From Patescibacteria group bacterium (GTDB lineage Bacteria > Patescibacteriota > Microgenomatia > PFEM01 > JAHIFH01), in NCBI GenBank assembly GCA_035529375.1, contig DATKWU010000005.1, positions 521 to 64,520 on the forward strand: DNA of 64,000 bases, given 5' to 3'. This document shows positions 7,294 through 51,403 of the stretch, piece by piece. The notes under the pieces were generated by a model that ran no database searches, was not told the origin of the DNA, and was given only the letters and a program-made list of their open reading frames with translations. The position numbers and the translations under genes are program-made. How positions within the stretch are numbered: position 1 is the first letter of the stretch; every line of letters begins with the position of its first letter.

Positions 7294-7305
7294 CTTAACA
7301 AAACT

Positions 7306-13803
<6,498 letters not shown>

Positions 13804-15832: not shown

Positions 15833-15906
15833 GGGCCTGTAGCTCAGTTGGCTAGAGCGTCGCATTCGCATTGCGGAGGTCGAGGGTTCGACTCCCTCCA
15901 GGTCCA
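15833..15906 (+). tRNA. tRNA-Ala (anticodon CGC)
   Basis: Cloverleaf folded by eye. Acceptor GGGCCTG/CAGGTCC with G3:U70. Anticodon loop TTCGCAT. T-arm GAGGG-TTCGACT-CCCTC. No encoded CCA. Confidence 0.85.
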
Positions 15907-15910
15907 CTCT

Positions 15911-15984
15911 GGGCCGTTAGCTCAGTTGGCTAGAGCGTCTGCATGGCATGCAGAAGGTCGCGGGTTCGACTCCCGCACGGTCCA
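15911..15984 (+). tRNA. tRNA-Ala (anticodon GGC)
   Basis: Acceptor GGGCCGT/ACGGTCC with G3:U70. Anticodon stem TCTGC/GCAGA, loop ATGGCAT. Lies 4 nt after the preceding tRNA-Ala. Confidence 0.85.
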
Positions 15985-16044
15985 CTTAAAAGTAACTTCT
16001 AGGCTTTTTGTTATAGGAAAAAACGAAAAAATAAGAGAATATTA

Positions 16045-21415: not shown

Positions 21416-21516
21416 ATTCCATTTACCTCACTTTCAAGAAAGTTTTTCTATTCTACCTTAAAATTAAGAGTTTGCCAAGTCTTTTTATTGTTTTGAGGTT
21501 TTAGAAATACCAAAAA

Positions 21517-21634
21517 GGCCAGCCCTGACCTATTTTCGCAGACCCTTGCGGATCAACTATCGTCGGCGCTGAAGTGTTTGACTTTCGTGTTCGGAATGGG
21601 AACGAGTCGTTCCACTTCGCTCCAAGGACTGGCC
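21517..21634 (-). rRNA. rrf: 5S ribosomal RNA
   Basis: The reverse complement begins GGCCAGTCCTTGGAGCGAAGTGGAACGACTCGTTCCCATTCCGAACACG and ends ...GGCTGGCC. About 118 nt. Lies downstream of 23S on the same strand. Confidence 0.8.
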
Positions 21635-21692: not shown

Positions 21693-24640
<2,948 letters not shown>

Positions 24641-24723
24641 TGAAGATTTAATCCACCTCCGCCCTTATGGGCTTTGGTAGATATTTTATTACTTTATTCT
24701 ATTCACTTTTCAAGGAGCCAAGG

Positions 24724-24796
24724 TGGACCGAAGCGGCTTCGAACCGCTGACCTCCTGTATGCAAAACAGGTGCTCTGCCAACTGAGCTATCGGCCC
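24724..24796 (-). tRNA. tRNA-Ala (anticodon UGC), in the spacer upstream of 23S
   Basis: The reverse complement GGGCCGATAGCTCAGTTGGCAGAGCACCTGTTTTGCATACAGGAGGTCAGCGGTTCGAAGCCGCTTCGGTCCA folds with G3:U70 and anticodon loop TTTGCAT. Confidence 0.9.
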
Positions 24797-25020
24797 AATT
24801 TTTTTAGCTCTTCATCTATTTCTTTGAGATAAGCTAAAAGAGTCTCGTATTCAGTCATCTTAAGATGATATCTAGTACTATCATGTCCGGGCCAAATTTC
24901 TTCAGAGTCTTCCTCTTCCTCTCTCATCCTTTTTTGAACTTTTCTGAGCCTCTCAAGGGCCTTCTCCTGACTTTGAAGAAGAGCCTTTTTTTTCTCTTCT
25001 TTTGAGATCTGGTTATTCAT
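24787..25020 (-). CDS. Small (77 aa) highly charged coiled-coil protein in the 23S leader region; may be spurious
   Basis: An uninterrupted frame in AT-rich DNA (MNNQISKEEKKKALLQSQEKALERLRKVQKRMREEEEDSEE...) with a heptad-like pattern. Its 3' end overlaps the tRNA-Ala by 10 nt. Confidence 0.3.
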   Translation of the reverse strand: MNNQISKEEKKKALLQSQEKALERLRKVQKRMREEEEDSEEIWPGHDSTRYHLKMTEYETLLAYLKEIDEELKKLGR

Positions 25021-25219
25021 TTCTCAAATTCTTTATTTCTTCTTCGATACTGATTAAATGTGCTCGGGCGACATTCAACTGCGACTCTTGTAACTCTGTA
25101 GCTGAATCCTCGTGTTTAACGCCCTTAAAATTTTTTAACGCTTCATCAAGCTTTGCCTTAGCTTCTTCTTTTTTTATTAATAATTCTTGATATTTATTGA
25201 CCATTTTTCCAAAAAACAA
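25013..25219 (-). CDS. Small (68 aa) coiled-coil protein; overlaps the following ORF by 8 nt; may be spurious
   Basis: MFFGKMVNKYQELLIKKEEAKAKLDEALKNFKG... Uninterrupted frame. Starts 7 nt after a terminator-like hairpin read on the same strand. Confidence 0.3.
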   Translation of the reverse strand: MFFGKMVNKYQELLIKKEEAKAKLDEALKNFKGVKHEDSATELQESQLNVARAHLISIEEEIKNLRNE

Positions 25220-25241
25220 AAAAGTCGCCCGGAGGCGACCC
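25211..25241 (-). terminator. Intrinsic-terminator-like hairpin: GTCGCC-CGGA-GGCGAC followed (on the minus strand) by TTTTTTGTTTTTT
   Basis: Perfect 6-bp GC-rich stem and tetraloop at 25224-25239. A 13-nt T-rich run follows on the minus strand at 25211-25223. On the plus strand the tail is the weaker CCTTTT. Confidence 0.5.
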
Positions 25242-25378
25242 TTTTAAGGTACCTAAGAAATCAGACTACGTCCCACGCCAAAAGAACTTGGTGATAACGT
25301 AATATTTCATCTGATTTCCCATAAGATTAAACCCGTCTGGGTTAAGCCTCCTTAATTACAATCTTATTATATGAGATT

Positions 25379-25407
25379 ATTATACGGAATGACAGAATAG
25401 ATGTCAA
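25379..25407 (-). promoter_or_regulatory. Consensus sigma70 promoter, TTGACA-17-TATAAT, firing toward the 23S side
   Basis: The reverse complement of 25379-25407 reads TTGACATCTATTCTGTCATTCCGTATAAT. Both hexamers are perfect consensus with a 17-nt spacer, as is typical of rRNA P1-type promoters. Confidence 0.55.
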
Positions 25408-25451
25408 GCGGCTAGATATCCACTCTTTTTTATGTTAAAATTTTTCTGATC

Positions 25452-25525
25452 GGGCGCGTAGCTCAGTGGTTTAGAGCGCTTACCTGATAAGTAAGAGGTC
25501 CCTGGTTCGATCCCAGGCGCGCCCA
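25452..25525 (+). tRNA. tRNA-Ile (anticodon GAU), oriented opposite to the flanking 16S/23S genes
   Basis: GGGCGCGTAGCTCAGTGGTTTAGAGCGCTTACCTGATAAGTAAGAGGTCCCTGGTTCGATCCCAGGCGCGCCCA. Anticodon loop CTGATAA. A good 7-bp acceptor stem. Confidence 0.9.
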
Positions 25526-25568
25526 CTGCGTCAAGCCACAGTGGCGTGGTCAAAAAAGACGCCTAATT

Positions 25569-27716
25569 ATGCCCGAAAAAGAAAAAATAATTTTAGAAAT
25601 AAGAATACCTCGCGAAAACGAGTATACCCCAGAATCGGCGGCTAATCTATTCTCTGGTTTCAGTAAAGCCCTTTCTTCTCAGTCAATCTTTCAGAGAATT
25701 CTTAGAAAACAATCAGAACCCTTGATTTTAGAAATTACCTGTCATCAACAAGGAATTCACTTTTATGTGGCTGTTTCTGAAGAACTTTTGCCTTTTTTAG
25801 AGAGCCAAATCTTGGCCGCTTATCCCCTTGCAATTCTTAATCGTGTCCCTGACTATCTCCAAAATTGGGAAAAAGAATCTCTGAAAATCGGCCAGATGAC
25901 TCAATCAACCAGTTATTATTATCCTATTAAAACCTATAAAGAATTCACTGATGTTGATTCACTCTCCTCTATTTTAGCGGTGATGTCAAAAGCCAGCGAA
26001 AATGATCTTTTGTTAATTCAGTTAGTCCTTCAAAAAGCCAGTTCAGGCTGGCAATCGTCAGCTCAAAGGGCCATCACTAAAGGAATCAGAATCAGTGAAA
26101 CAGAAAGGCAAGCTTTACCTGGAGAAAATTTGATTAAACAAAAAATTGAAGAAGGCGGATTAAAAACGGGTATCCGACTAGCTACTTCTTCGGAATTGCT
26201 TTTAAAATCATTAGCTGGTGGTTTTGCTCCTTTTACTCGAGGTGATGGTAACTCCCTAGCTTTCAAAAAGCCTTCTGTTCTAAATAAAAATAAATTAAAA
26301 AACGCCATCTTAACCCACCAATCAGGTTTTACCCCACGTTATCAAATTTTTTCTGTTTCTGAATTGGCCACTTTCTGGCACCTGCCTGGACAAAGTGTCA
26401 AAATTCCTAATATTGCTTGGGGGCGTTCGGTTTTAACCGAAGCACCAGAAAATTTACCAATAGCTGAAGGTTTAACCGAAGAACAAAAGTCAGAAATTAA
26501 TTTCTTTACTAGAACAGAATATAAAAATAAATTGATGACTTTTGGCATAAAAAAGGATGATCGTCGTCGTCATATTTATGCCGTTGGTAAATCTGGTACC
26601 GGTAAATCAACTATGATTGCCAACATGGCCATTGATGATCTGAAAAAGCGCCAGGGTTTGGCAGTAATCGATCCTCATGGTGACCTTTCAGAAATTCTTT
26701 TGGACTATATCCCCTCTCATCGGATAAACGATATCTGTTATTTAAATCCGGCTGATAAAGAATATCCCTTCTCTATCAATATTCTTGAGGTTGATGATCC
26801 TGCGCAAGCTGAACTTGTTGCTTCTGGAATTGTCTCTATTTTCTATAAACTCTACGCTCATTCCTGGGGACCAAGAATGGAATATATTTTGAGAAATACT
26901 TTACTCACCCTGGCTCAAACGCCCAACACTACTTTGGTTGATGTTCCTAGAATTTTAACTAACAAAAATTTCAGAAACGAAATCGTCGAAAAACTTCAAG
27001 ATCAAGTTCTGACCAGCTTTTGGACCGAAGAATATAATAAGATGCCAGACAGATTAAGAGAAGAAGCTATTAATCCCATTTTGAACAAAGTCGGCCAATT
27101 TGTTACTTCACCTTTAATCCGCAGTCTTATTGGCCAACCCAAATCAACTATTAATTTAGAAAGAATCATGAATGAGGGCAAAGTGATTATTCTTAACCTC
27201 TCCCAAGGACGTTTAGGAGAAGATAATGCTGCTCTATTAGGAGCAATGTTAATTACCAAAATTCAATTAGCCGCCATGAATCGGGTTAATATTCCTGAAG
27301 AACAAAGACGGGATTTTTATCTTTACGTCGATGAGTTTCAAAACTTTGCTACCAGGGCTTTTATTAAAATTCTTTCTGAAGCAAGAAAATATCGTCTTAA
27401 CCTTTGTTTAGCTAATCAATACATGGCTCAAATTGACGAAGACGTCCAGAAAGCAATCCTGGGAAACGCTGCCACTTTAATTTCTTTTCTAGTTGGCGCC
27501 GAAGACGCCAATATCTTAGAAAGAGAGTTTGGGGGTATTTATACAGAACAAGATTTGGTTGGTCTTTCCAACTTCCAAGTCGTGACTAAACTAGCGGTTG
27601 ATAATATTACTTCCAGACCTTTCTTTGCCTATACCCTACCCCTACCTAAATCTAAGAACCAAAACCGAGAAAAAGTCATCAGAGTTTCAAGAGAAAGATT
27701 TTCTTATAAAAAGTAA
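25569..27716 (+). CDS. TrwB/TraD/VirD4-like (FtsK-HerA superfamily) P-loop ATPase with an N-terminal ~330-aa domain of unknown function and no predicted TM helices
   Basis: Walker A GKSGTGKST, followed by the family-typical AVIDPHGDL. Walker B YLYVDEFQNF. Downstream LCLANQYMAQID. The N-terminal third has no recognisable motif. Confidence 0.65.
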   Translation: MPEKEKIILEIRIPRENEYTPESAANLFSGFSKALSSQSIFQRILRKQSEPLILEITCHQQGIHFYVAVSEELLPFLESQILAAYPLAILNRVPDYLQNWEKESLKIGQMTQSTSYYYPIKTYKEFTDVDSLSSILAVMSKASENDLLLIQLVLQKASSGWQSSAQRAITKGIRISETERQALPGENLIKQKIEEGGLKTGIRLATSSELLLKSLAGGFAPFTRGDGNSLAFKKPSVLNKNKLKNAILTHQSGFTPRYQIFSVSELATFWHLPGQSVKIPNIAWGRSVLTEAPENLPIAEGLTEEQKSEINFFTRTEYKNKLMTFGIKKDDRRRHIYAVGKSGTGKSTMIANMAIDDLKKRQGLAVIDPHGDLSEILLDYIPSHRINDICYLNPADKEYPFSINILEVDDPAQAELVASGIVSIFYKLYAHSWGPRMEYILRNTLLTLAQTPNTTLVDVPRILTNKNFRNEIVEKLQDQVLTSFWTEEYNKMPDRLREEAINPILNKVGQFVTSPLIRSLIGQPKSTINLERIMNEGKVIILNLSQGRLGEDNAALLGAMLITKIQLAAMNRVNIPEEQRRDFYLYVDEFQNFATRAFIKILSEARKYRLNLCLANQYMAQIDEDVQKAILGNAATLISFLVGAEDANILEREFGGIYTEQDLVGLSNFQVVTKLAVDNITSRPFFAYTLPLPKSKNQNREKVIRVSRERFSYKK

Positions 27717-27736
27717 CCTCAACTTTTCAGTGGCAT

Positions 27737-27767
27737 TAAAAAACCACCTTGATTAGGTGGTTTTTTC
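27737..27767. terminator. Bidirectional rho-independent terminator (AAAAAACCACCT-TGATT-AGGTGGTTTTTT) between the ATPase gene and the 16S 3' end
   Basis: 7-bp stem ACCACCT/AGGTGGT, 5-nt loop, flanked by an A6 tract upstream and a T6 tract downstream. Convergent genes lie on either side. Confidence 0.7.
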
Positions 27768-27888
27768 TTTAACCCTATTTACTGTGGTAGGAGACGTTAG
27801 TTTTGTTTCCTATCTCATAAATGAGATAAGCAAGAAAAACCAACAAAATCTTGGGGTGTCTTTTCCGCCAAAGGCGGATCGTTCACTC

Positions 27889-29350
<1,462 letters not shown>

Positions 29351-29505
29351 AAAAAAATTTCCTACCACAATAAATATTGTTAAAGGTTTACTATTCAATT
29401 TTCAAAGGACTCCTAAAAACTTAAAATCCCGGACCAAGCCGGGATTAATGCTTTATTGCGGGCAAACGCCCGACCTGGTCATTAAACTATGTCATTTCTT
29501 GGTTG

Positions 29506-29534
29506 ATGATAACAAAATAGTTCTTAACTGTCAA
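29506..29534 (-). promoter_or_regulatory. Candidate 16S promoter, TTGACA-17-TATCAT, lying within the 3' end of mnmA
   Basis: The reverse complement of 29506-29534 reads TTGACAGTTAAGAACTATTTTGTTATCAT. Located about 160 nt upstream of the mature 16S 5' end. Confidence 0.5.
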
Positions 29535-31453: not shown

Positions 31454-31621
31454 TTAAGCATTACCTTTGTCTTTTTTGTCGGTGCCTCCCGAGGCGTCTT
31501 TAAATTCTTTGAGTGCCTTAGCTACCCCTTCAAAGAGTTCTGGGATTTTCTTACCTCCGAAGAGGAAGACAACGATGACAGCGACAACTATTAGTTCTGT
31601 GGTCCCGATTGAGCGGAACAT
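31454..31621 (-). CDS. tatA: TatA/TatE family translocase subunit (55 aa; below the ORF-track cutoff)
   Basis: Translated by hand: MFRSIGTTELIVVAVIVVFLFGGKKIPELFEGVAKALKEFKDASGGTDKKDKGNA. TM helix, then FGG-K-PE hinge, then amphipathic helix. GGAGGTG lies 6 nt upstream of the ATG. Ends 10 nt before tatC. Confidence 0.7.
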   Translation of the reverse strand: MFRSIGTTELIVVAVIVVFLFGGKKIPELFEGVAKALKEFKDASGGTDKKDKGNA

Positions 31622-31667
31622 ATCCTACACCTCCTTTTTATTTTAACCTCGCGAATAACGCAGGTTT

Positions 31668-31859
31668 TTAATCCTTACGTGATTCGCTTTTTTCAGTAGT
31701 CCCGGTAAGGCCGTCTTTGATTTTTTTAATTTCTCTGAAGCTTTCTCCCCCTACCCTGCCTAATTTAATGGCGAATTTACCGCCAAACAGGACCACAAGG
31801 ATCAGAACAATAAGAATTACTTCTGTTGGACTGATATTTTTTAAGAAACTAAACATTTG
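31668..31859 (-). CDS. Second TatA/TatB-like subunit
   Basis: From the internal Met of the track ORF: MFSFLKNISPTEVILIVLILVVLFGGKFAIKLGRVGGESFREIKKIKDG (TM, FGG-K hinge, amphipathic helix). Start choice uncertain. Confidence 0.5.
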   Translation of the reverse strand, partial: QMFSFLKNISPTEVILIVLILVVLFGGKFAIKLGRVGGESFREIKKIKDGLTGTTEKSESRKD

Positions 31860-31914
31860 ATTAAATTTGACTATATAACTCAATATAACAAAATGCAAGA
31901 GCTAAAACAAATGG

Positions 31915-32160
31915 TTATTTTTTACCCATACTAGCTGCAAACCAATTAGAACCATCATAATACTCCAGACTGTTGGTTTGCAAGTTAAATCCCAAGATTC
32001 CCTGTTTGGCCTTTTTTGGTCTCTCCCCTGTTTTCCAGGAGGCAATTTTGGGCATGCCGAGCATTAAGAATAAGTCTTGACCGATATTTAGCAGGAGCGG
32101 ATAACTCTTTTCCATTTTGACTTCACATCCATTGTATAGACTTTTTTCTTTTGGTGTCAA
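31915..32160 (-). CDS. Small (81 aa) protein whose C-terminal ~50 aa are homologous to the C-terminus of the adjacent giant Ser/Pro-repeat protein
   Basis: PKIASWKTGERPKKAKQGILGFNLQTNSLEYYDGSNWF aligns with SIPSWNTTGRPKKAKKGTFGFNVESKTLEFWNGTSWL of ORF 32191-36333. Confidence 0.5.
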   Translation of the reverse strand: MTPKEKSLYNGCEVKMEKSYPLLLNIGQDLFLMLGMPKIASWKTGERPKKAKQGILGFNLQTNSLEYYDGSNWFAASMGKK

Positions 32161-32190
32161 GTTTTAAGGGGGAGAAAAATTTTTGAGGGG

Positions 32191-35100
32191 TTAGCTGATT
32201 TTTTTCATTGGCAATTTCAGCCAAGAAGTTCCATTCCAGAACTCCAATGTTTTGCTTTCCACATTAAAGCCAAAAGTGCCCTTTTTAGCTTTCTTGGGCC
32301 GGCCAGTAGTGTTCCAAGAAGGAATGGAAACAGCCTTTAAGCCTAAATAACCCCTCTTGCTAACAACTTCCCTACCAACAATGAGGGGGTGTTTGTTAAA
32401 GATAACTGGCGCCGGAGGCGGAGTAGGAACAGGCCGAGGACTGGGCGAAGCTGAAGGTGAGGGGCTAATACTGGGTGAAGGTGTTGGTGAGGGTGAACCC
32501 GGTGTTGGTGAGGGTGATGGCGATGGGCTGGGGCTAGCAGACGTCGGTGAGGGTAGTGAGGGTGATGATGAAGGCGATGGAGATATTGAGCCACTGAGTG
32601 AGACCGACGGACTAAGACTAACGAGAATCGACGGTGAAACGCTTGGACTAATTGAGGCTGAGGGGCTGAGACTGGGTGAAACACTTGGACTAACTGATGC
32701 TGATGGACTAACGCTGGGTGAAACGCTTGGACTAACTGAAGCAGACGGACTGACCGATGGACTAGCCGAGGGGCTAAGCGATGGGCTGGCTGAAGGGCTA
32801 ACACTTGGACTAACTGAAGCAGAAGGACTAACGCTGGGTGAAACACTTGGACTAACTGATGCTGATGGACTGACACTTGGACTAGCCGAGGGGCTAAGCG
32901 ATGGGCTGGCTGAAGGGCTAACTGAAGGGGAAACACTGGCTGACGGAGAAACGCTAGGACTGACCGATAGACTGACCGAGGGACTCAGACTCGGTGAAAC
33001 AGACGGACTCAGACTCGGAGAGACACTTGGTGAAACTGACGGACTTAAAGAGGGACTAGCCGATGGTGAAATACTGGCACTCGGACTAAGGGAGGGACTA
33101 ACGCTTGGTGAAATTGAAGGAGACAAACTGGGACTCAAACTGGGAGATACCGAGGCAGATGGTGAAACACTTGGCGATATCGAAGGCGAAACCGATGGGC
33201 TTACTATCGGAGACAGACTTGGCGATACACTCGGTGAAATTGAAGGCGAGACCGAAGGGCTAGCACTCGGTGATACTGATGGACTAATACTGGGTGAAAT
33301 TGAAGAAGATACTGAAGCACTTGGTGATACCGATGGACTCACACTGGGTGATACTGAGGGACTAATTGACGGACTGACTGATGGTGAAGCAGATGGGCTA
33401 ACACTTGGAGAAACACTCGGTGAAACACTTGGACTGACGCTCGGCGAAACCGAAGCAGATGGTGAGACACTCGGCGATACTGAAGGAGAAAGCGATGGGC
33501 TCGCACTAGGTGAGGCCGACGGACTAATTGATGGGCTTACGCTTGGAGATGCGCTTGGTGATACTGAAGGGCTAATTGATGGTGATATCGAAGCCGAGGG
33601 AGATACTGAGGGGCTGATACTCGGAGAAACGGAAGGAGAAACTGATGGACTAACACTTGGAGAGACACTGGGGCTAATACTCGGGCTAACCGATGGCGAA
33701 ACACTAGGTGAAACACTTGGGCTGATCGAAGCAGAAGGACTAATTGATGGTGAAGCTGATGGGCTAATTGATGGTGAAGCAGAGGGAGATGCCGATGGTG
33801 AAACACTTGGACTAGCGCTTGGAGAAACACTGGGCGATACAGAAGCTGAAGGAGAAACGCTCGGACTCACAGAGGGTGAAATACTGGGTGAGACTGATGG
33901 ACTAGCTGATGGACTCACAGAGGGTGAAATACTGGGTGAAACTGAGGGACTAGCGCTTGGACTAATACTCGGACTGACTGAAGCGGAGGGTGAGACTGAT
34001 GGGCTGACAGATAGACTGGCACTGGGTGAAACAGACGGACTTACAGACGGTGAAACACTTGCCGATGGAGAGACTGAGGGTGAGATTGATGGCGAGACAG
34101 AGGGACTGACTGAGGGAGATGCCGATGGTGAAACTGATGGACTAGCGCTTGGACTAACACTCGGACTCACAGAGGGTGAGACACTGGGTGAGACTGAAGG
34201 TGAAACACTTGCCGATGGGCTGACTGACGGACTGACTGAAGGACTCACACTAGGTGAGACTGATGGGCTGACAGATACACCGATAGAGGGTGAAACTGAT
34301 GGACTTACTGAAGGCGAAACAGATGGACTGACACTGGGTGAAACTGAAGCCGATGGACTGACTGAAGGGCTGACTGAAGGTGAGACTGATGGACTAACTG
34401 ACGGAGAAACAGATGGACTGGCACTGGGTGAGACTGATGGGCTGACTGACGGAGAAGCAGATGGAGAAATTGAAGGTGAGACGCTGGCACTCGGTGAAAC
34501 GGATGGGCTTACCGATGGACTAACTGAAGGTGAAACTGAAGGAGAAACGCTAGGTGAAACACTCGGAGAAACAGACGGACTCACAGAGGGTGAGACACTT
34601 GCCGATGGAGAGACTGAAGGTGAAACTGATGGCGAGATAGACGGACTGACCGAGGGAGATGCCGATGGCGAAACAGATGGACTAGCGCTTGGACTAACGC
34701 TCGGACTCACAGAAGGTGAAACACTGGGTGAGACTGACGGTGAAACACTAGCTGATGGAGAGACTGAAGGTGAAACTGAAGGTGAAGCACTCGGAGATAC
34801 ACTCGGGGAAACTGAAGGCGAAACAGATGGACTAGCGCTTGGAGAAACAGACGGTGAAACACTTGCTGATGGACTAACTGAAGGAGAAACGCTGGGTGAA
34901 ACCGACGGGCTAGCGCTTGGACTAACGCTCGGACTGACTGAAGCGGAGGGTGATACTGACGGACTCACAGAGGGTGAAACACTGGGTGAGACTGATGGAC
35001 TAACTGAAGGCGAAACAGATGGACTAGCGCTTGGAGAAACACTGGGCGATACAGAAGCTGAAGGTGAAACGCTCGGACTCACAGAGGGTGAGACGCTGGG

Positions 35101-36333
35101 GCTTACTGAAGGACTTATAGATACACCGATAGAGGGTGAAACGCTTGGAGAGACAGACGGCGAAGCAGAAGGACTGACCGACGGTGAAACGCTTGCCGAT
35201 GGACTAACTGACGGGCTGACCGATGGTGAGACGCTGGGTGAGACTGATGGACTTACAGACGGACTGGCACTAGGACTCACTGAAGGACTAACTGAAGGAG
35301 AAGCAGAAGGACTGACTGAAGGTGAAACACTTGCGCTCGGTGAAACAGACGGACTGACCGAGGGTGAGACGCTGGGGCTGACAGACGGGCTCACACTGGG
35401 TGAAACTGATGGACTAACGCTTGGAGAGACAGACGGCGAAACGCTTGCTGATGGACTGACACTGGGACTCACTGAAGGACTAACTGAAGGAGAAACCGAT
35501 GGACTGACTGAAGGAGAGACTGAAAGCGAGACTGAAGGGCTAACACTCGGCGAAACACTCGGAGAAACCGATGGACTGGCTGAAGGTGAAATACTGGGAC
35601 TCACTGAAGGACTAACTGAAGGGCTCACACTAGCTGAGGGAGAAACTGATGGTGAAACCGATGGGGAAATCGATGGTGAAACAGATGGACTGACCGAGGG
35701 GGAAATCGATGGTGAAACAGATGGACTGACCGACGGGCTAGCACTTGGCGAAACACTCGGGGAAGCTGAAGGAGAAACCGATGGGGAAACACTGGGAGAG
35801 ACACTTGGACTGGCTGAAGGACCAGATGCCGTCAAAACCTGCGAGTGGGATTTATCTGTATCCAAAGGAATTATGGCGCCGGCAATTTTGACCCGGAAAT
35901 AATAGGTGGTGCTAGAAGAAACATTGGCCGTCGGGACAATACAAACATCAAATTCGTTATTCTTTTTTTTAGTAACCGCGCAAGTATAAGTACCGCTTTC
36001 AATGTATTGCCCTTGCGAGGTGGTGTCAGTCAAAAGCCATTGCCCAACCACAGGTGGAGAAGGATTCCCTTCGGTTGCTTGACCATCGGCATAATTCCAG
36101 TGATTAGCAGCACCAAAAGACGTCCAACCATCAATATCATTAAGGGAATACTCCATCGTCCAAGCCCCACTCCCGTTTGTGTTACCTGTTTCCCCAATAC
36201 GGATTCTCAATCTGGTCTTGTTGATATTATTGGGTAAGGTTGGCTTGGTATTTTCATTAGCCAGCTGGCTTGATGGTTCGATACCATCGTCCTGAAACCA
36301 TTTCCAATTTCCTTGGTTGGGTGTAAATGCCAT
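32191..36333 (-). CDS. Giant (1380 aa) protein: N-terminal ~170-aa globular domain, ~1100 aa of tandem [V/A/I/L]SPS tetrapeptides, Pro-rich linker, conserved ~55-aa C-terminal domain
   Basis: The non-repetitive N-terminus (MAFTPNQGNWKWFQDDGIEPSS...YYFRVKIAGAIIPLD) has no obvious signal peptide. About 275 VSPS/ASPS/ISPS/LSPS units follow. Then PSPSPSPTPGSPSPTPSP...PVPTPPPAPV. The C-terminus is shared with ORF 31915-32160. Confidence 0.8.
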   Translation of the reverse strand: MAFTPNQGNWKWFQDDGIEPSSQLANENTKPTLPNNINKTRLRIRIGETGNTNGSGAWTMEYSLNDIDGWTSFGAANHWNYADGQATEGNPSPPVVGQWLLTDTTSQGQYIESGTYTCAVTKKKNNEFDVCIVPTANVSSSTTYYFRVKIAGAIIPLDTDKSHSQVLTASGPSASPSVSPSVSPSVSPSASPSVSPSASPSVSPSVSPSISPSVSPSVSPSISPSVSPSVSPSASVSPSVSPSVSPSISPSASPSVSPSVSPSVSPSVSLSVSPSVSPSVSPSVSPSVSPSVSPSASVSPSVSPSVSPSVSPSVSPSVSPSVSPSVSPSVSPSASVSPSVSPSASPSVSPSVSPSASPSVSPSVSPSVSPSVSPSVSPSASVSPSVSPSASPSVSPSVSPSIGVSISPSVSPSVSPSVSPSVSPSASVSPSVSPSASPSVSPSVSPSVSPSVSPSVSPSVSPSASVSPSVSPSASPSVSPSVSPSVSPSASVSPSVSPSASPSVSPSVSPSVSPSASPSVSPSVSPSASVSPSVSPSVSPSVSPSVSPSASPSVSPSASPSVSPSISPSVSPSVSPSASVSPSVSPSVSPSVSPSVSPSVSPSVSPSVSPSVSPSASVSPSISPSASPSVSPSVSPSASPSVSPSVSPSVSPSVSPSVSPSASVSPSVSPSVSPSVSPSVSPSIGVSVSPSVSPSVSPSVSPSVSPSASVSPSVSPSVSPSVSPSVSPSASPSVSPSASPSVSPSVSPSISPSVSPSASVSPSVSPSVSPSASLSVSPSVSPSASVSPSISPSASPSVSPSISPSVSPSASPSVSPSISPSVSPSVSPSASVSPSVSPSASPSVSPSASPSASPSISPSASPSISPSASISPSVSPSVSPSVSPSISPSVSPSVSPSVSPSVSPSISPSVSPSASISPSISPSVSPSASPSVSPSISPSASPSASPSLSPSVSPSVSPSASVSPSVSPSVSPSVSPSVSPSASPSVSPSISPSVSPSVSPSVSPSASVSSSISPSISPSVSPSASPSVSPSISPSVSPSLSPIVSPSVSPSISPSVSPSASVSPSLSPSLSPSISPSVSPSLSPSASISPSASPSLSPSVSPSVSPSLSPSVSPSLSPSVSLSVSPSVSPSASVSPSVSPSASPSLSPSASPSVSPSASVSPSVSPSVSPSASVSPSVSPSASPSLSPSASPSVSPSASVSPSVSPSVSPSASVSPSVSPSLSPSASISPSVSPSILVSLSPSVSLSGSISPSPSSSPSLPSPTSASPSPSPSPSPTPGSPSPTPSPSISPSPSASPSPRPVPTPPPAPVIFNKHPLIVGREVVSKRGYLGLKAVSIPSWNTTGRPKKAKKGTFGFNVESKTLEFWNGTSWLKLPMKKIS
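32370..35820 (-). repeat. About 3.4 kb coding minisatellite: tandem 12-nt units (plus-strand register about GGTGARACNGAT/GGACTRACTGAA) encoding the SPS tetrapeptide array, ending in a Pro/Ser-rich tail
   Basis: 12-nt periodicity with many imperfect copies is visible throughout 32.44-35.83 kb. Shadow ORFs appear in several frames and on both strands. Confidence 0.9.
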
Positions 36334-36558
36334 TTTTTATTTTTTTTCCATTAAATAACCGCCGTACCCATCAACGGCTAAAAACATTGTAACAAGATAA
36401 CAACCTCTAAGAAAACCACTGAAGAGGGGTTTTAACCAAGTTTTTTGATTAAGTCTTTGGTTTTTCCCCCAGCCAGGAATTTCGCTATCAGTTTCCAACC
36501 AGCCTTGGCAACTGTTTTTAAAATCATCCTGACTCCAGCGGTTTTTTTGATTAAATTG

Positions 36559-37665
36559 TTACTGTGCCGGACGTCGATAATGGGCAAGGCCAATTTCTAG
36601 ATGCTGGATAGTGGATTGAGCCGAAAAAATCACCCCGGAGGAAGGCAAGGATGATTTTTTCCTAGCCGGTTTGGTAGCGATATGTTTTGAACTGAGTTTG
36701 GCTTCTTTAGTTTTGAGTTTTTTCAAATCTTCATCGGTCCAACCTTTAACCGGCCAGAATTTCTCCACCAACCAAGAAACCGGATGCTTCTGATCTGGCA
36801 AACCCTTCAAGATTTGTTCCCAGACTTTTTTTCTGACCTCGTGCTGATCCTTACCTGAAGCAGGCCAAGGAAAACTAAAAGTGGCGTTTTTCGTCCGAAA
36901 CATATGGGCATACCAAGTTTGGTGGTTAACCAGCACCCGGCCACCTTTCAACCAGGTTTTACAAGCGACTTCAATGCCTTGATGTCCCCAATTGCCAAGC
37001 GTTTCATCACACAAATTCCAATCCCAATATAATTGACGCAGACACATAAAACATGATCCTTGAATTGACATTATTTCGGTTAATCCCTTCTCCTTCTTAT
37101 CTTTTTTGTATTCTGGCCGGCGGCGATATTCACCAAAATAAGCAAATGTGGGTTGAGCGTCAAAACAATAGGAATCGCTCTGGGGCCGCTCTTTGCCGAT
37201 CCAAAGCATTTTTTTCTTCATTTTGTTCCCACAAGCAGGACATTTGGGTTCCCGATCTTGGTAAACTCGCTTGCCGCATTTATAGCACTTCCAGTCATAA
37301 GCCCACAGATTTCTCATCACCGGAAGCATCACCACTTTTTCATCCACTTTTCGGAAAGCCTCAATCATTTTTCTATCAAAACCCTTATCAAATGAACAAT
37401 GAGCGTCCAATTTCATCACGTATTTGGCCCGGCTTAAGCGACAGGCCAGATTCTGAGCCGCCCTTTGGCCAATCGCCGGATTAACATAAATTAGACTCAC
37501 CCGATCATGTTGTTCTATGGGTGAGTTGGCCCATTGGCCATCTAAAACAGCAATCACTTCCGTATCGGCCTCGATATTTTTTAAAATATCCTCGATCGTG
37601 TTTTCCAGGAATTCCTCATTCCTGGCTGGTATTAAGATTGACAAATCACGCATAACCGACAGCAA
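36559..37665 (-). CDS. Family 2 glycosyltransferase (GT-A) with an inserted Cys4 zinc-ribbon and a Lys-rich C-terminal tail
   Basis: N-terminal LSILIPARNEE...VIAVLDGQ...KLDAHCSF (GT2 DxD/DAH region). CYKCGKRV...CPACGN insertion. Paralogous to ORF 44525-45331 (QGSC-W, GG-L-VN--TW-AH). Confidence 0.7.
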   Translation of the reverse strand: MLSVMRDLSILIPARNEEFLENTIEDILKNIEADTEVIAVLDGQWANSPIEQHDRVSLIYVNPAIGQRAAQNLACRLSRAKYVMKLDAHCSFDKGFDRKMIEAFRKVDEKVVMLPVMRNLWAYDWKCYKCGKRVYQDREPKCPACGNKMKKKMLWIGKERPQSDSYCFDAQPTFAYFGEYRRRPEYKKDKKEKGLTEIMSIQGSCFMCLRQLYWDWNLCDETLGNWGHQGIEVACKTWLKGGRVLVNHQTWYAHMFRTKNATFSFPWPASGKDQHEVRKKVWEQILKGLPDQKHPVSWLVEKFWPVKGWTDEDLKKLKTKEAKLSSKHIATKPARKKSSLPSSGVIFSAQSTIQHLEIGLAHYRRPAQ

Positions 37666-38053
37666 TAACCGCTATTGGCCGTAAATTAGTGCCAAGAGCT
37701 TTTGCCACCCTCCTTTCTCTAAAAGCCCCAATCCAAACTGAGGCCAAACCCATCTCAACTAATAACAGTTGTAAATAAGCACCACAAATAGTCGCGTCTT
37801 GGATTGAATACAAATTCCTACCTCTGTCTCCATACCTTTTGGCGTAAGCTTCTGGGTTGGTACAGATTACGAGATACAGCGGCGCGTCTAAGGAAATAAC
37901 CTTTTCTTTGGTGGCAATTACCTCAAAACCCCTAATTCCCCCGGCTGATGGCCCAGTTTTGGCTAAAGCAATCAACTTCGTCAAATCTGGCACTTCTTTT
38001 TCTTTAAATACCCTAATTGATTTTCTTTTTTTAATTACTTCTTTAAGTTCCAT
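37646..38053 (-). CDS. Short nitroreductase-family-like protein (135 aa)
   Basis: N-terminal KKRKSIRVFK motif (compare RRS-R-F of nitroreductases). C-terminal WIGAF...IAVIAVGYA. Overlaps the downstream GT2 start by 20 nt. Shorter than typical family members. Confidence 0.4.
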   Translation of the reverse strand: MELKEVIKKRKSIRVFKEKEVPDLTKLIALAKTGPSAGGIRGFEVIATKEKVISLDAPLYLVICTNPEAYAKRYGDRGRNLYSIQDATICGAYLQLLLVEMGLASVWIGAFRERRVAKALGTNLRPIAVIAVGYA

Positions 38054-38540
38054 CTAGTTCACAAAACTTTATTAATGCCTCAATAATCGCTTTGTTGTAA
38101 GAATCTATCAATTTCTTGTTGTATTTTCCTTTCCAGCTTTTTAATATTTTTTTTGGTTTTCTAAAACAACAGATTAAGTAAACGTCGTTGCTCAAATGGG
38201 GCAAATACTTGTCAACCGTAAAAGCCGATCTAGGGTCTTTCCAGCCCCAAAAATCAGCCTTTTTTCTTTTAATTAACTGCTTAATTTCTTGTGTCCAATC
38301 TTTATCAGGATGACGGATCATTAACTTATTTAGTTTCAAAAAATCTGGATCTTCATAAAAATCCTTATTATATGTTTTTACTTTTTTTCCACCCCTTCTA
38401 TCCCAGTTAAAACCCTTCTTCACACTACCCATCTTTACTCCCCCTATTTCAAGGAGTTTAGAAATAAACGAAGTCGCCGAGTTGGGACAACCAAGCACTA
38501 TATAAGTCTTTTCTTCCTTGCTGTGTATTTTAATCGTCAT
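38043..38540 (-). CDS. P-loop sulfotransferase-like protein (tentative)
   Basis: Preferred start at the internal Met (MTIKIH...), which gives an ATGA overlap with the upstream gene. YIVLGCPNSATSFISKLL resembles the PAPS-binding 5'-PSB loop of sulfotransferases. Otherwise no clear motif. Confidence 0.35.
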   Translation of the reverse strand: MTIKIHSKEEKTYIVLGCPNSATSFISKLLEIGGVKMGSVKKGFNWDRRGGKKVKTYNKDFYEDPDFLKLNKLMIRHPDKDWTQEIKQLIKRKKADFWGWKDPRSAFTVDKYLPHLSNDVYLICCFRKPKKILKSWKGKYNKKLIDSYNKAIIEALIKFCELDGT

Positions 38541-39343
38541 ATTATTCCATTTTTTTTGAACAATTTTTTTAATCTTTTGGTAACTAATGGCTTGCCTAGC
38601 CTGTTTTTTCCGTAAACGCAAACTTCCAGATTAGCGTTCTCTGACTCCCGGTCAACCGGCCTCCTATCGAAGGGGTGAAAGTGAATCACTTTCAGTGGTT
38701 TGTCGGCAATCTCATAAGTTTTAACAATATCTCTTCTTCTGGTCGCAAAATTATAGGTGATGTTGATTCGGTTGATTCTCTTTTTCAAATATTGGAATCT
38801 TTTTTTCTTGAGAATGTCCAGCAAGACGACTTCCTCGTTAGCCCGATAGGCGTCGGTTGTCCGCTTCCAAATATCGAAAATATATTCCGCCTTCGTGTCA
38901 AAGAATATCGTTCCCGTACTCCACCTTTTATCTAGCGTAAAATGAATAACCGTCTTGCCGTAATCAGTCAAAGCCAAATCGTAACCATCAAGCATTTGTT
39001 TCGCCTCGCCTTCAGTTATTTTTTGGAGCTGGAAAGCATCGTTGTCGTGATACCAAAAAATATCATCGCTGATAATGCCCATGTTATACAGGGTAATAAT
39101 CGCATTAATTTTAGTCGCTGTCGGTTTGATATGGTTGAAATTATCATCCCCAATGACCAATGCTTTAACCCCTTCATACTCGTAATCAAAGCTGGTCACC
39201 AATAAAATGTCTTTCCGTTTCCACCCCAACTCCAAACTGTTATCAATCTGGATTTTTATCAAAGACTCAACCTCACTACTCCAGTTGTACTGGTCACTTA
39301 CAAAACTTCTGTTTGGACTGATGTAAATTAGTAAGTTTTTCAT
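38537..39343 (-). CDS. Putative nucleotide-sugar glycosyltransferase-like protein (DxD-containing, family unassigned)
   Basis: Preferred start MKNLLIYISP gives an ATGA overlap with the upstream methyltransferase gene. YHDNDAF is a DxD-like motif. Rich in W/Y/K, like its neighbours. Confidence 0.35.
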   Translation of the reverse strand: MKNLLIYISPNRSFVSDQYNWSSEVESLIKIQIDNSLELGWKRKDILLVTSFDYEYEGVKALVIGDDNFNHIKPTATKINAIITLYNMGIISDDIFWYHDNDAFQLQKITEGEAKQMLDGYDLALTDYGKTVIHFTLDKRWSTGTIFFDTKAEYIFDIWKRTTDAYRANEEVVLLDILKKKRFQYLKKRINRINITYNFATRRRDIVKTYEIADKPLKVIHFHPFDRRPVDRESENANLEVCVYGKNRLGKPLVTKRLKKLFKKNGII

Positions 39344-39957
39344 TTGATCCAAAACCAACTTGGGCAACGGTCGCTGTCTTTTCCAATAACATACCAATTC
39401 TTTATCCTATTAGCCTGGGTATAGGCATCAACCGCAAACTTGACCTGCATATTTTCCCAAGCCCAAGGTTGCTTTCTCTTTTTAAAGTCCTCTGGATGAA
39501 TATAATCATGTCCAGCAATCGTCCCACCCTTCCTGACTTTCTTTGACCAACCATCAATGTCCTCAGCCACATACTTTAAAATATGATTGCCGTCAATATA
39601 AACAAAATCCAAACTCTCATTCTCAAAGTTCTTTAAAGCCTCCATCGAGGTTTTTCTCACAACGGTAGCGTTTTCGTAACGGGATAAAAGTTTCCAAGCC
39701 CGATGATAAAGATATTCTTGTCTCTCTACTCGGGCGTCTTCTACTCGATCAAAGCCGGGATAGGGTGTCCAATAATCTATGGCGTAAATTTTCAATCCCG
39801 CCTTACAAAACTTTCTAGAAAACCAGCCTTTGTAAACTCCGATTTCTGCTCCGATTTGGTAACCCATTTCCTTAAAAAAGCCAGGTAAATCATTTCGTGA
39901 AGAACCGGGAATCACAAAAGGGTTGTCTTGGTGTTTAATTCCTTTAATTATTTTCAT
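39340..39957 (-). CDS. Class I SAM-dependent methyltransferase, TylF/MycF (macrocin O-MT)-like
   Basis: FFKEMGYQIGAEIGVYKGWFS (motif I-like), IDYW, GGTIAGHDY. Size of 205 aa is typical of TylF-family sugar O-methyltransferases. Confidence 0.55.
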   Translation of the reverse strand: MKIIKGIKHQDNPFVIPGSSRNDLPGFFKEMGYQIGAEIGVYKGWFSRKFCKAGLKIYAIDYWTPYPGFDRVEDARVERQEYLYHRAWKLLSRYENATVVRKTSMEALKNFENESLDFVYIDGNHILKYVAEDIDGWSKKVRKGGTIAGHDYIHPEDFKKRKQPWAWENMQVKFAVDAYTQANRIKNWYVIGKDSDRCPSWFWIK

Positions 39958-39958
39958 T

Positions 39959-40630
39959 CTATTTTTTGTAAATTTCTTTCACTCCTTTCATTAAACTCGC
40001 CCTTACTTTCTTGCCGTTTCCCCAATAAGGCAAGTCGTAAATCGGCGCTCTTTCGGAATGGGTATAGTACCTCATACTCCGATGGGTTTTAACTTGAAAC
40101 ACAGGGTTTTTTGTTTTCCAATAATAAATCTTGTCAAAAATATCGTCTTTCTTTGTTCTCTCTTTGGGAAAGTTCTTTTCTTCTACTGACCACTGAGGCA
40201 ATCCTTTAAACTGTTCACCTAATACCTTTAGATAATATTTTCTGCCGATAACTTGGGCGTGGGTTGCCCCTTCCTTTTTGTAAAACCAGTAATTCCGGTG
40301 ATCACCCATGACATAGACATTCGAGTTTCGGTAACACCGATCCAATTCTCTTGGTCTGAAGGTAAAATAATCGGGAGGATACATGCAGTCGGCCTCGGCC
40401 GAGATGACGAAATCGGCCTTTGTGTTTTGACAGCCTATTTGAATTTGCCTGAACATATTAAAATTAGAAGCGCCCACGTTGCCGATGCAGATGTTTTTCC
40501 CAAAGTTAATCGGTTCTTGAGAAACGCTAATAATCGGCAAATCAGTCACTTTCAAAATGTTTGCTTTGATCCTATTTTCAAACTCAGGGTGCTCCTGATT
40601 GCTAGTGTAGTATATAATAGTTGCCGTCAT
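39959..40630 (-). CDS. Unknown-family protein; paralogue of ORF 41610-42272 (candidate GT-A-like transferase)
   Basis: Shares IISVSQEPINFGKN / IITISRKPLDWGKN, AEADCMYPPDYFTFRP / ADDDTLYPEQHFQFRP and C-terminal YDLPYWGNGKKVR / YDIPIWGKAKNLR with ORF 41610-42272. Confidence 0.5.
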   Translation of the reverse strand: MTATIIYYTSNQEHPEFENRIKANILKVTDLPIISVSQEPINFGKNICIGNVGASNFNMFRQIQIGCQNTKADFVISAEADCMYPPDYFTFRPRELDRCYRNSNVYVMGDHRNYWFYKKEGATHAQVIGRKYYLKVLGEQFKGLPQWSVEEKNFPKERTKKDDIFDKIYYWKTKNPVFQVKTHRSMRYYTHSERAPIYDLPYWGNGKKVRASLMKGVKEIYKK

Positions 40631-41649
40631 GTTAGCTTTTGATATAGTTTGACTACGTTTTCAATATGATATGGTTCCGCCATTTTGATTAATTTTTCAG
40701 GCCATTGATCGTATTCTGCTTTTAACTTTTTAACTCCTGCCAGCAGTTCTTTCATATTGTTGGCAGGCAGATAGTAACCTTCAATTTCTTTGTAGCTTTT
40801 TAGCGGGTAGGCAACGGTAGGAACTCCAAATGAGGCGGCATTGATAATTTTAGTGGGTGTTTTGTGAATGCTCTGATCTCCCAACTCCCAGCCCCCGATT
40901 ACCAAAATGTCAATGTTTTTGTAAAAATTAGCAGCATCTTCCCTCCCTTCAAACTTAAAACAAGTAACAAAATCAAAACCTATTTCTTTAACGGCCCTCC
41001 CTATTCGCCCATATATTTCTCTCGCAATTGGCGAAACGCTTCCGGTATATCCACAAGTATTAACTTCCTTCCGTTCTCTTCTTTGCCCTTCCCAATTGAG
41101 GTGGTGATGAGGGATAAGAACGACTTTGTTCGCTAAATGATTTTTCAGCCAATCGTAACTTCTCTTTGAGGCGGCGATTAAATTAATCCCTGGTCTTTTT
41201 TTCAGCTTTTTAATAAACTTGCCTCCATCCAAAACATCTACCCAGTCGCCATCCTCAATATCGTCTAAATTACTTGGCTTAAGATAAATGCAGACATCGT
41301 TCTTGTATTTTTTCTTTGGGTTAATTCTGGCACCCAAAAACTTAGCCATCTGATATCCTCTTATTTCTGTTGAAAGATAGCCTCCATGCTTCTTAGGCCA
41401 AAAAATGCTAATCATCCTTTCTTTGATATTCCTTCTTTCATCGAAATATTCGTTGATAGCATTGACCAGCTCTGAACTAAATCTTTTTAAATCCTGAAGT
41501 TCCTTGGCGTCTTTTTTTGTGCGTTTATCTCTTTGAACTTTATCGACCAAATGAAATATTTTAATGTTGGTTATTCCCAGTTCGTCAATTAATGCTCCTA
41601 TTGTCTTTTTCATACAAACTTTCTCCTTAAATTTTTTGCTTTTCCCCAA
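40627..41649 (-). CDS. GT-B (family 1-like) glycosyltransferase, tentative
   Basis: C-terminal region DILVIGGWELGDQS...KIINAASFGVPTVAYP resembles the nucleotide-sugar-binding half of GT1 enzymes. The N-terminal ~60 aa are Lys-rich. Confidence 0.4.
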   Translation of the reverse strand: MGKSKKFKEKVCMKKTIGALIDELGITNIKIFHLVDKVQRDKRTKKDAKELQDLKRFSSELVNAINEYFDERRNIKERMISIFWPKKHGGYLSTEIRGYQMAKFLGARINPKKKYKNDVCIYLKPSNLDDIEDGDWVDVLDGGKFIKKLKKRPGINLIAASKRSYDWLKNHLANKVVLIPHHHLNWEGQRRERKEVNTCGYTGSVSPIAREIYGRIGRAVKEIGFDFVTCFKFEGREDAANFYKNIDILVIGGWELGDQSIHKTPTKIINAASFGVPTVAYPLKSYKEIEGYYLPANNMKELLAGVKKLKAEYDQWPEKLIKMAEPYHIENVVKLYQKLT

Positions 41650-42272: not shown

Positions 42273-42553
42273 AGTAGTTTTCGGTAAAAATCTTTATTTA
42301 TCTTGGTAAAACCTACCTTCTCATATAATTTTTTGGCTGGTAGATTATCTTTATTCACTACCAATTCTACTGAATCCACATTTTTATCTTTAGCCAATGC
42401 CAATGCCTTATCAAGCAATTCAGTTCCAATGCCCATTCTCCGATGTGCCTTCTCGACTTCAACCACATCTATTATCATCACGTTAGCCTTCCCATTGTTA
42501 TAGAAAGTGCATAAACACGACCCGCTTTTTACCTTTATTTTTTGCTGTTCCAT
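42269..42553 (-). CDS. Small GNAT-family N-acetyltransferase
   Basis: Motif A region VEKAHRRMGIGTELLDKALALAK; 94 aa. Overlaps the DegT gene end by 19 nt. Confidence 0.6.
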   Translation of the reverse strand: MEQQKIKVKSGSCLCTFYNNGKANVMIIDVVEVEKAHRRMGIGTELLDKALALAKDKNVDSVELVVNKDNLPAKKLYEKVGFTKINKDFYRKLL

Positions 42554-45331: not shown

Positions 45332-45413
45332 TATTAATTTCTTTCCACCCTCTTAATAAGACAAGCCCCAACTTTAAGAAGATTGCCGGGGCAGCAAATT
45401 CGGCTCTCATCTT

Positions 45414-46064: not shown

Positions 46065-46078
46065 TAGTTTACCTTTTT

Positions 46079-51400: not shown

Positions 51401-51403
51401 AAA

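Follow-up and report, generated by a model that had tools for sequence, protein, structure and literature searches.

Bacterial ribosomal RNA (rRNA) genes are regarded as unlinked when 16S and 23S lie more than 1,500 bp apart, and Patescibacteria are among the clades in which this is exclusively or mostly the case, as a phylogenetically conserved trait (Brewer et al., bioRxiv 10.1101/705046). Within the Candidate Phyla Radiation (CPR), 27 of 34 closed genomes were found to be unlinked, and a "type D" has been defined by a distance above 2,000 bp with one or more opposite-strand genes in between, which makes a shared promoter implausible; Microgenomatia genomes with a 16S–23S distance of 2,872 bp are tabulated in the same work (Lui et al. 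2021, PMC8172020). Here, we describe the rRNA locus in a stretch of 64,000 nucleotides (hereafter "the window") on contig DATKWU010000005.1 of a Patescibacteria group bacterium (assembly GCA_035529375.1), a close relative of "Microgenomates group bacterium RBG_19FT_COMBO_39_10". In this locus, the genes for tRNA-Ile and a 715-aa P-loop ATPase stand on the plus strand between the minus-strand 16S and tRNA-Ala–23S–5S genes. With 3,259 bp from the 3' end of 16S to the start of 23S (27892 - 24632 - 1), it lies above the 1,500-bp limit of Brewer et al., and the plus-strand ATPase and tRNA-Ile genes between minus-strand rRNA genes place it in type D of Lui et al.

The window shares with the unlinked rRNA genes of other Patescibacteria and CPR bacteria the gap of more than 1,500 to 2,000 bp, the 23S–5S pair that stays together (here at a spacing of 83 bp), the opposite-strand protein gene, and the nature of a conserved clade-specific trait. 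Moreover, the tabulated 2,872-bp distances of Microgenomatia match the gaps of ~2.8 kb that we see in two relatives of the window (L081 and L088 below). Unlike in other unlinked CPR cases, 16S and 23S are adjacent and co-oriented and not tens to hundreds of kb apart. The split operons of Rickettsia, Wolbachia, Buchnera, Helicobacter, and Borrelia similarly have 16S apart from 23S–5S with presumed separate promoters, and they have been tied to small genomes with a single rRNA copy (PMC8172020). However, the genes of these reduced-genome bacteria are usually far apart and their spacer tRNAs lost or relocated, whereas the window has retained the spacer tRNAs and keeps ~3 kb between 16S and 23S. 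For most CPR genomes, rRNA genes that are unlinked and have opposite-strand genes between them have been reported before, and the window is a well-resolved further example. What we add is the identity of the intervening gene, its clade-wide synteny, an internal promoter with a leader, and a flip of tRNA-Ile; the available portions of the Brewer and Lui papers name neither an intervening gene nor an internal promoter or leader nor a tRNA-Ile flip.

It seems likely to us that a whole clade inherited this gene order, already fixed, from its ancestor, that the ATPase is a resident and vertically inherited gene and does not represent a mobile-element scar, and that the locus is composed of three transcription units. 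A conjugation-type ATPase gene next to a tRNA gene in an rRNA locus mimics such a scar, and the original prediction for this DNA had read it as one; the comparison below corrects this to a fixed feature of the lineage. Much else of that prediction held up: Rfam and ARAGORN confirm the split operon with minus-strand 16S and tRNA-Ala–23S–5S at coordinates that had been right within a few bases; the inverted tRNA-Ile(GAU) and the plus-strand ATPase in the spacer are recovered by ARAGORN, the list of open reading frames (ORFs), and Pfam; and the two small minus-strand ORFs exist (24787 to 25020 and 25013 to 25219). The assignment of the ATPase to the TrwB/VirD4 superfamily agrees with Pfam matches above cutoffs. 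A bidirectional terminator had been described as abutting the 16S 3' end; its hairpin does fold on both strands but lies 125 nt past that end. The features of the locus are the following:

21516 to 21531: terminal stem of 5S with a T-run, terminator-like (terminator scan)
21517 to 21633, minus strand: 5S rRNA gene (Rfam RF00001, 80.2 bits)
21717 to 24632, minus strand: 23S rRNA gene, full length and uninterrupted (Rfam RF02541, 2510.8 bits, model positions 1 to 2925)
24722 to 24796, minus strand: tRNA-Ala(UGC), which leads the RNA genes of the 23S unit (ARAGORN; Rfam tRNA, 65.6 bits)
24787 to 25020, minus strand: small ORF2, 77 aa, coiled-coil-like (ORF list)
25013 to 25204, minus strand: small ORF1, 63 aa if translation starts at the probable ATG (25204); in the ORF list it is longer, with a TTG start at 25219
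25217 to 25246, minus strand: terminator-like hairpin with T-run that closes the leader of the 23S unit (-18.0 kcal/mol)
25247 to 25372, minus strand: structured leader of the tRNA-Ala–23S–5S unit (alignment, consensus fold, covariance model, ORF test)
25379 to 25407, minus strand: predicted promoter of the tRNA-Ala–23S–5S unit (TTGACA, 17 nt, TATAAT; 12/12 match)
25413 to 25441, plus strand: divergent promoter-like site (TAGATA, 17 nt, TGnTAAAAT; 9/12 with extended -10)
25452 to 25526, plus strand: tRNA-Ile(GAU) (Rfam and ARAGORN, 73.1 bits)
25569 to 27716, plus strand: ORF of the 715-aa P-loop ATPase (ORF list, Pfam)
27738 to 27766, both strands: bidirectional intrinsic-terminator-like hairpin, A6-stem-loop-stem-T6 (-15.7 kcal/mol on one strand, -19.2 kcal/mol on the other)
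27892 to 29355, minus strand: 16S rRNA gene, full length and uninterrupted (Rfam RF00177, 1384.5 bits)
29358 to 29446, minus strand: 16S leader elements, with a hairpin at 29425 to 29446, boxA-like CCTTTAACAAT at 29376 to 29386, and TTGTGGTAGGAAA at 29358 to 29370
29506 to 29534, minus strand: predicted promoter of the 16S unit (TTGACA, 17 nt, TGnTATCAT; 11/12 match)

The ATPase start codon follows the tRNA-Ile 3' end by 42 nt, and the bidirectional hairpin begins 21 nt past the ATPase stop codon. Rfam finds a single rRNA set in the window.

Conservation of the gene order among relatives

We compared the loci that encode relatives of the ATPase, with the gene order read as far as each contig reaches. 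The order S1, 5S–23S–tRNA-Ala, tRNA-Ile, ATPase (plus strand), zero to three extra genes, 16S, and mnmA recurs in a clade with the following members, given with the identity of their ATPase to that of the window:

L090: 96% (NCBI GCA_001803445.1; ends at the start of 16S)
L002: 88%
L091: 86%
L092: 80%
L089: 78%
L084: 76%
L001 and L081 to L083: 75%
L085 and L086: 71% (contigs of 301 and 566 kb)
L087: 70% (contig of 865 kb)
L088: 68%

The arrangement is old, since 16S identity to the window is just ~80% to 82% in the relatives at 68% to 78% ATPase identity. Extra genes in the gap of some clade members encode a NUDIX protein and a nitroreductase, an HD-domain protein, or a HAD hydrolase. Identities of the ATPase and of the adjacent 23S are well correlated (r = 0.87 over 55 pairs) and delimit identical subclades, and Rho, RadA, S1, and MnmA encoded in the flanks have diverged to a similar extent. 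Many outgroup Microgenomates encode the ATPase within a few kb of rho, a gene for an M23/LysM peptidase, and radA, all of which are also found a few kb from the ATPase gene in the window; outside the clade, no rRNA was found in the 8-kb flanks of the ATPase gene where contigs reach that far. Because non-clade Microgenomates have the linkage of ATPase, rho, and radA without rRNA, this linkage predates the one between ATPase and rRNA genes. The ATPase looks like a resident gene that has been inherited vertically. The arrangement could be used as a synapomorphy of this Microgenomates clade. For methods that depend on 16S–23S linkage such as operon-length amplicons, it means products above ~7 kb or failure in this group. 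Separately, we observed insertions in the 16S and 23S genes of L001 and L081 to L089, several of them with ORFs for LAGLIDADG homing endonucleases, whereas the rRNA genes of the window are uninterrupted.

Probable transcription units and rRNA leaders

Most likely, 16S and 23S belong to separate transcription units that each have their own conserved predicted promoter. The two sites that the original prediction had named as candidates turned out to be the two best sigma-70 matches in a 9-kb scan (25407 to 25379 with 12/12 and 29534 to 29506 with 11/12), and both appear to be conserved in the clade. All 11 distinct clade loci have a TTGACA-17-TAnnAT match at the corresponding site before tRNA-Ala, so that it falls between tRNA-Ile and tRNA-Ala where tRNA-Ile is on the minus strand, and L002 and L081 have a promoter match of equal type ahead of 16S. 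The plus-strand site at 25413 to 25441 lies 10 nt before tRNA-Ile, is conserved in L002 and L091, and is the probable promoter of a tRNA-Ile–ATPase transcript. A hairpin with T-run is also present ~90 to 140 nt past 16S in L081, L085, L088, and L089, with stem sequences that differ. We infer promoter and terminator use from this conservation of sequence; the leader motifs described below may act like rrn antitermination signals.

The first unit would start at the 16S promoter P16 (29534 to 29506) and run through a leader with a hairpin and boxA-like elements and through 16S to the hairpin at 27738 to 27766. The second would lead from the plus-strand promoter (25413 to 25441) through tRNA-Ile and the ATPase mRNA to the same hairpin from the opposite side; ATPase transcription would be convergent with that of 16S, and the bidirectional hairpin would be common to both. 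If tRNA-Ile and the ATPase gene are indeed co-transcribed, processing of the tRNA would generate the 5' end of the mRNA. The third unit would start at the internal promoter P23 (25407 to 25379) and continue through the structured leader and one or two small ORFs to tRNA-Ala, 23S, and 5S.

Both rRNA leaders contain a hairpin with T-run and U-rich/GT-rich motifs. In the 16S leader, CCTTTAACAAT is followed by TTGTGGTAGGAAA with small variations in 8/8 leaders, and the motif CCTTGACAATCA...TGTGGTAGGAA likewise recurs in all eight in slightly varied form. The 23S-unit leader contains TTCTTTTGGCGTGGGA, with a U-rich stretch and then a GYGTGGGA motif (boxA/boxC-like). These motifs resemble the boxA and boxC antitermination signals in the rrn leaders of E. 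coli and B. subtilis and, by analogy, would explain how the leader hairpins are read through.

The leader of the 23S unit measures ~130 nt and has a long-range stem, and 4/10 pairs of its consensus fold show compensatory changes; similarly, the hairpin at 25217 to 25246 has retained its structure across relatives while its stem sequence has changed. Since the two tRNAs were the only credible RNA families in an Rfam E-value search of 24600 to 27900, this leader is not a known RNA family. A covariance model built for it matches exactly 15 loci that all have this rRNA arrangement (the window, L002, and L081 to L092 among them) and 0/77 outgroup loci, which led us to reject the leader as an independent small RNA gene that travels with the ATPase gene.

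The 23S-unit leader further contains an ORF of 18 codons (19 in L088) with the pattern M-R-x(n)-hydrophobic/aromatic-R-G-T/S (M-R...F/L-W/L-R-G-T/S). It stays open in 9/9 distinct leaders although the inner leader sequence has diverged almost beyond alignment, and the chance of having no in-frame stop lies at 0.17 to 0.31 per leader. Its opening codons are paired with the nucleotides that directly follow its stop codon. The case for coding is weak because substitutions among L002, L091, and L084 are mostly non-synonymous (by eye) and because 16S leaders have a similar ATGAG motif with a stop two codons later. It would be quite surprising if the promoter, the ~130-nt leader with this ORF, and the terminator-like hairpin formed a translation-sensing attenuator that couples 23S synthesis to ribosome activity, as opposed to a plain rRNA leader. 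As a separate observation on rRNA leaders and spacers, a palindromic element composed of an exact GAGTGCTAAGATTAGG with the inverted partner CCTAATCTTAGCACTC occurs in L085/L086 (~15950) and L089 (~2986 and ~9331) and is absent from the window; the CCTAATCTTAGCACTC arm can also be seen by eye in L084 and L087, there within the 16S leader.

The ATPase and competing explanations of the locus

By its sequence, the ATPase is a member of the VirD4/VirB4 superfamily with a soluble N-terminal domain (DUF8128 in homologues) and a VirD4/VirB4-type NTPase domain. Pfam matches comprise TrwB_AAD_bind (PF10412; 43.7 bits at a cutoff of 20.5), TraG-D_C (PF12696; 27.1 bits at a cutoff of 22), and DUF87, while all NCBIfam models for conjugation and type IV coupling proteins (T4CPs) score far under their cutoffs and no VirB4 family model exceeds its own. 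The Walker A (GKSGTGKS, residue 340) and Walker B (YLYVDE, residue 584) motifs are intact, and TrwB is the sole match in a PDB sequence search, short and around the P-loop. The ATPase has the P-loop NTPase with both Walker motifs, the two Pfam domains, and this PDB match in common with the T4CPs VirD4 and TrwB, but it differs from them in that a soluble domain of ~290 aa takes the place of the N-terminal transmembrane anchor. No transmembrane segment was detected anywhere in the protein (top 19-residue Kyte-Doolittle mean of 1.35 compared to the usual threshold of 1.6), including its N-terminus. Unlike for VirD4 and TrwB, no genes for a relaxase or a type IV secretion system (T4SS) were found nearby in Pfam scans that covered 47 of 51 ORFs (90 aa or longer) in the 64-kb window. 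With these two defining features of coupling proteins failing, membrane anchor and T4SS/relaxase linkage, we class the protein only as a VirD4/VirB4-superfamily ATPase.

In an AlphaFold model, the N-terminal 280 residues form a confidently folded alpha/beta domain and the NTPase core is poor. The top PDB structural matches of the full-length model are full-length chains of TrwK/VirB4 (E = 7e-7 to 4e-4), followed by Cag-beta, which suggests that the ATPase and TrwK/VirB4 have in common a two-part build of a soluble N-terminal domain and a C-terminal NTPase. However, the alignments with TrwK/VirB4 over ~460 to 740 columns reach TM-scores of just 0.24 to 0.31 at 8% to 11% identity, the NTPase core of the model has low confidence, and no VirB4 family model matches the ATPase above its cutoff.

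A word-indexed search retrieved more than 4,800 homologues of the ATPase. Most of the best 120 clusters cover 98% to 100% of the query at 55% to 96% identity, with few truncated fragments, and nearly all of them have PF26449 (DUF8128) ahead of the TrwB/DUF87 domains; precomputed annotations give this domain for homologues such as P0001 (96% identical), but a local Pfam scan of the window ATPase listed none. The N-terminal 290 residues by themselves retrieve 897 cluster representatives. Source-given names of the homologues are mostly Microgenomates or Patescibacteria, with a few records of metagenome-assembled genomes (MAGs) under other, apparently mis-assigned labels. At least 416 loci in a one-genome-per-species scan encode a relative of the ATPase across many CPR lineages (Microgenomates groups as well as Dojka-, Uhr-, Berkel-, Moranii-, and Saccharibacteria-labelled MAGs), and soluble DUF8128/VirD4-like ATPases of this kind are widespread in Patescibacteria. 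Our literature search for DUF8128 returned no papers. Previous work counted 5,713 VirD4-like T4CP homologues in 2,918 Patescibacteria genomes, found only 148 of them near virB4 with relaxases almost absent, and suggested possible exaptation (Quinonero-Coronel et al., PMC12102498); like the ATPase described here, most T4CP homologues of Patescibacteria have no relaxase/T4SS linkage (PMC12102498). In several non-Microgenomates loci (L051 to L054, L065, L072, and L078), tblastn spans suggest a second ATPase paralogue a few kb upstream, and such nearby paralogues fit the ~2 VirD4-like genes per genome that follow from these literature counts.

The original prediction had interpreted the spacer as the remnant of a decayed integrative and conjugative element (ICE) that had targeted tRNA-Ile and left the ATPase as its surviving coupling protein. 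The locus does share with tRNA-targeting ICEs a conjugation-type ATPase gene beside a tRNA gene, and the TrwB_AAD_bind and TraG-D_C matches, the 42 nt between the two genes, the tRNA fragments in the spacer of L089 (including a tRNA-Ile-like gene split in the anticodon loop), and the integrase N-terminal fragments at 6829 to 7600 of the window would all fit such an origin. By contrast, the expected hallmarks of these elements came out negative. No att-like direct repeat involving tRNA-Ile was found in 24600 to 27900, and the longest direct repeats of this region are AT-rich, chance-like, and 12 to 16 nt long. Neither a relaxase nor VirB4 nor an integrase catalytic domain appeared when 47 ORFs of the window, out of 51 with a length of 90 aa or more, were scanned with Pfam (the other four have 94 to 109 aa), and no integrase was found in the spacer or the flanking genes in these scans; the only integrase-like match is an N-terminal SAM-like fragment on the plus strand (6829 to 7293), ~18 kb away and past housekeeping genes. 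The GC content of the ATPase gene (0.38 to 0.39) equals that of flanking genes (0.37 to 0.39) without compositional anomaly, and its position is unchanging in every clade member examined, i.e., its distribution is not patchy. The absence of a transmembrane anchor, a family that is Patescibacteria-wide, a position fixed down to 68% ATPase and ~80% 16S identity, the co-divergence with the adjacent 23S, and the outgroup location beside rho and radA all argue in the same direction. The comparison to the rRNA loci of related genomes that had been proposed as a check shows that close relatives share the arrangement and that the ATPase is conserved and non-mobile, which refutes the ICE interpretation and leaves it very improbable. 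A chimeric join across rRNA repeats might also produce such a locus, given that rRNA regions are classic break and mis-join points in metagenome assemblies and that L090 stops at the 16S start. Yet the identical order is found in independent NCBI, JGI, and ENA assemblies with diverged sequences and on several contigs of 300 to 865 kb, and the window contains just one rRNA set; misassembly is excluded because the arrangement recurs in this way, and the probability that we would still grant it is negligible.

A different alternative accepts the gene order and questions its transcription: the operon might still be linked, with polymerase from the 16S promoter reading through the hairpin and antisense through the ATPase gene into tRNA-Ala–23S–5S and with a minor role of the internal promoter. 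All rRNA genes are indeed on one strand in canonical order, the boxA-like rrn-type antitermination signals of the 16S leader could suppress the hairpin at 27738 to 27766, and terminator-like hairpins lie inside both leaders and are evidently read through in this organism. We consider continued linkage unlikely in light of the 12/12 promoter upstream of tRNA-Ala with its conservation in 11/11 distinct clade loci, the hairpins with T-run past 16S in several relatives despite their differing stem sequences, the up to three further genes between ATPase and 16S in relatives, and the head-on encounter with ATPase transcription that read-through would face over 2.1 kb. Our preferred reading of an ancestrally fixed locus with a resident ATPase and three transcription units has to contend with several points that weigh against it. 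L003, with 67% ATPase identity, does not have the arrangement, which leaves the boundary of the clade provisional. The present order may have arisen by a move of the ATPase gene into the spacer or by a shift of the rRNA blocks around that gene, and the outgroup loci do not tell the two apart. The promoter and terminator calls are consensus matches whose total counts do not exceed shuffle expectation; the calls carry weight only through how good and how well conserved the individual sites are. A terminator-like hairpin stands between P23 and tRNA-Ala, so 23S synthesis from P23 would require read-through, for which rrn antitermination offers no more than an analogy. Finally, pLDDT (the per-residue confidence score) of the ATPase model is below 50 at residues 287 to 346 and 573 to 689.

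Later changes in the spacer and neighboring regions

The one recent feature of the arrangement is the orientation of tRNA-Ile, which is inverted relative to the ancestral state. Among the five closest genomes (the window, L090, L002, L091, and L092), this gene always lies on the plus strand, all other clade members (L001 and L081 to L089) have it on the canonical minus strand, and the plus-orientation group is monophyletic by ATPase as well as 23S identity. Such a clean split by subclade fits a single in-place inversion of tRNA-Ile, which would have happened in the immediate lineage of the window and would have placed this gene at the head of the ATPase transcript. In the alignment of the window with L002 and on reading L081, L089, L091, and L092, the inversion boundaries were not mappable, with flanks too diverged between the orientation groups, and no flanking inverted repeats around tRNA-Ile were visible at these loci.

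Of the two small ORFs, ORF1 is kept in L090 and L002 (70% aa identity in the latter), L092 has an ORF at its position that starts with identical residues, and relatives with minus-strand tRNA-Ile do not have it. ORF2, a paralogue of ORF1, shares 10 nt with the start of tRNA-Ala and is found only in the window and L090 (95% identical); its identity to the one small ORF of L002 is 34%, and ORF2 as such is absent from L002 and L091. Neither small ORF has a family match (no Pfam or NCBIfam match for ORF2). The number of small ORFs is 0 in L091 with its flipped tRNA-Ile, 1 in L092 and L002 (between leader hairpin and tRNA-Ala), and 2 in the window and L090. These counts order the two later micro-events relative to each other as the flip of tRNA-Ile, then insertion of a small coiled-coil ORF between leader hairpin and tRNA-Ala, which would subsequently have been duplicated in tandem. 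The small ORFs would have to share a transcript with rRNA.

L089 (3140 to 3400) contains a tRNA-Ile(GAU)-like gene that is split exactly in the anticodon loop, with its 5' half at 3315 to 3333, its 3' half at 3153 to 3177, and ~137 nt between the halves that hold an intact tRNA-Ile gene (3194 to 3269). A 5' fragment of tRNA-Ala lies at 3374 to 3393. These fragments indicate that the neighborhood of tRNA-Ile has been rearranged more than once. A GC-rich structured stretch of L089 (2840 to 3130) was considered as a group I intron and rejected with no Rfam support and no Rfam family match.

Elsewhere in the window, the 154-aa ORF at 6829 to 7293 (plus strand) consists of the phage-integrase N-terminal SAM-like domain alone, and a 2,122-aa ORF at 7435 to 13803 (plus strand) opens with an integrase SAM-like stretch that is followed by collagen repeats and DUF2341, with no catalytic domain seen. 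On the other side of the rRNA locus, ~17 kb (31500 to 48300) are apparently inserted relative to relatives. This block encodes a 1,380-aa PT-repeat protein with a GC content of 0.50 to 0.53 compared to 0.38 nearby, together with glycosyltransferases, a methyltransferase, a DegT aminotransferase, a MerR regulator, and an IS200-like Y1 transposase/SH3 ORF (46079 to 47350). In L085, L087, L088, and L089, a cluster of RimK, ATP-grasp, 7TM-transglutaminase, and redox genes directly follows mnmA, and the copy of this cluster in the window is located at 48390 to 54221. Genes for tRNA-Ala(CGC) and tRNA-Ala(GGC) stand in tandem 4 nt apart at 15833 to 15985 (plus strand), and together with tRNA-Ala(UGC) of the rRNA locus they make three alanine isoacceptors within 9 kb.

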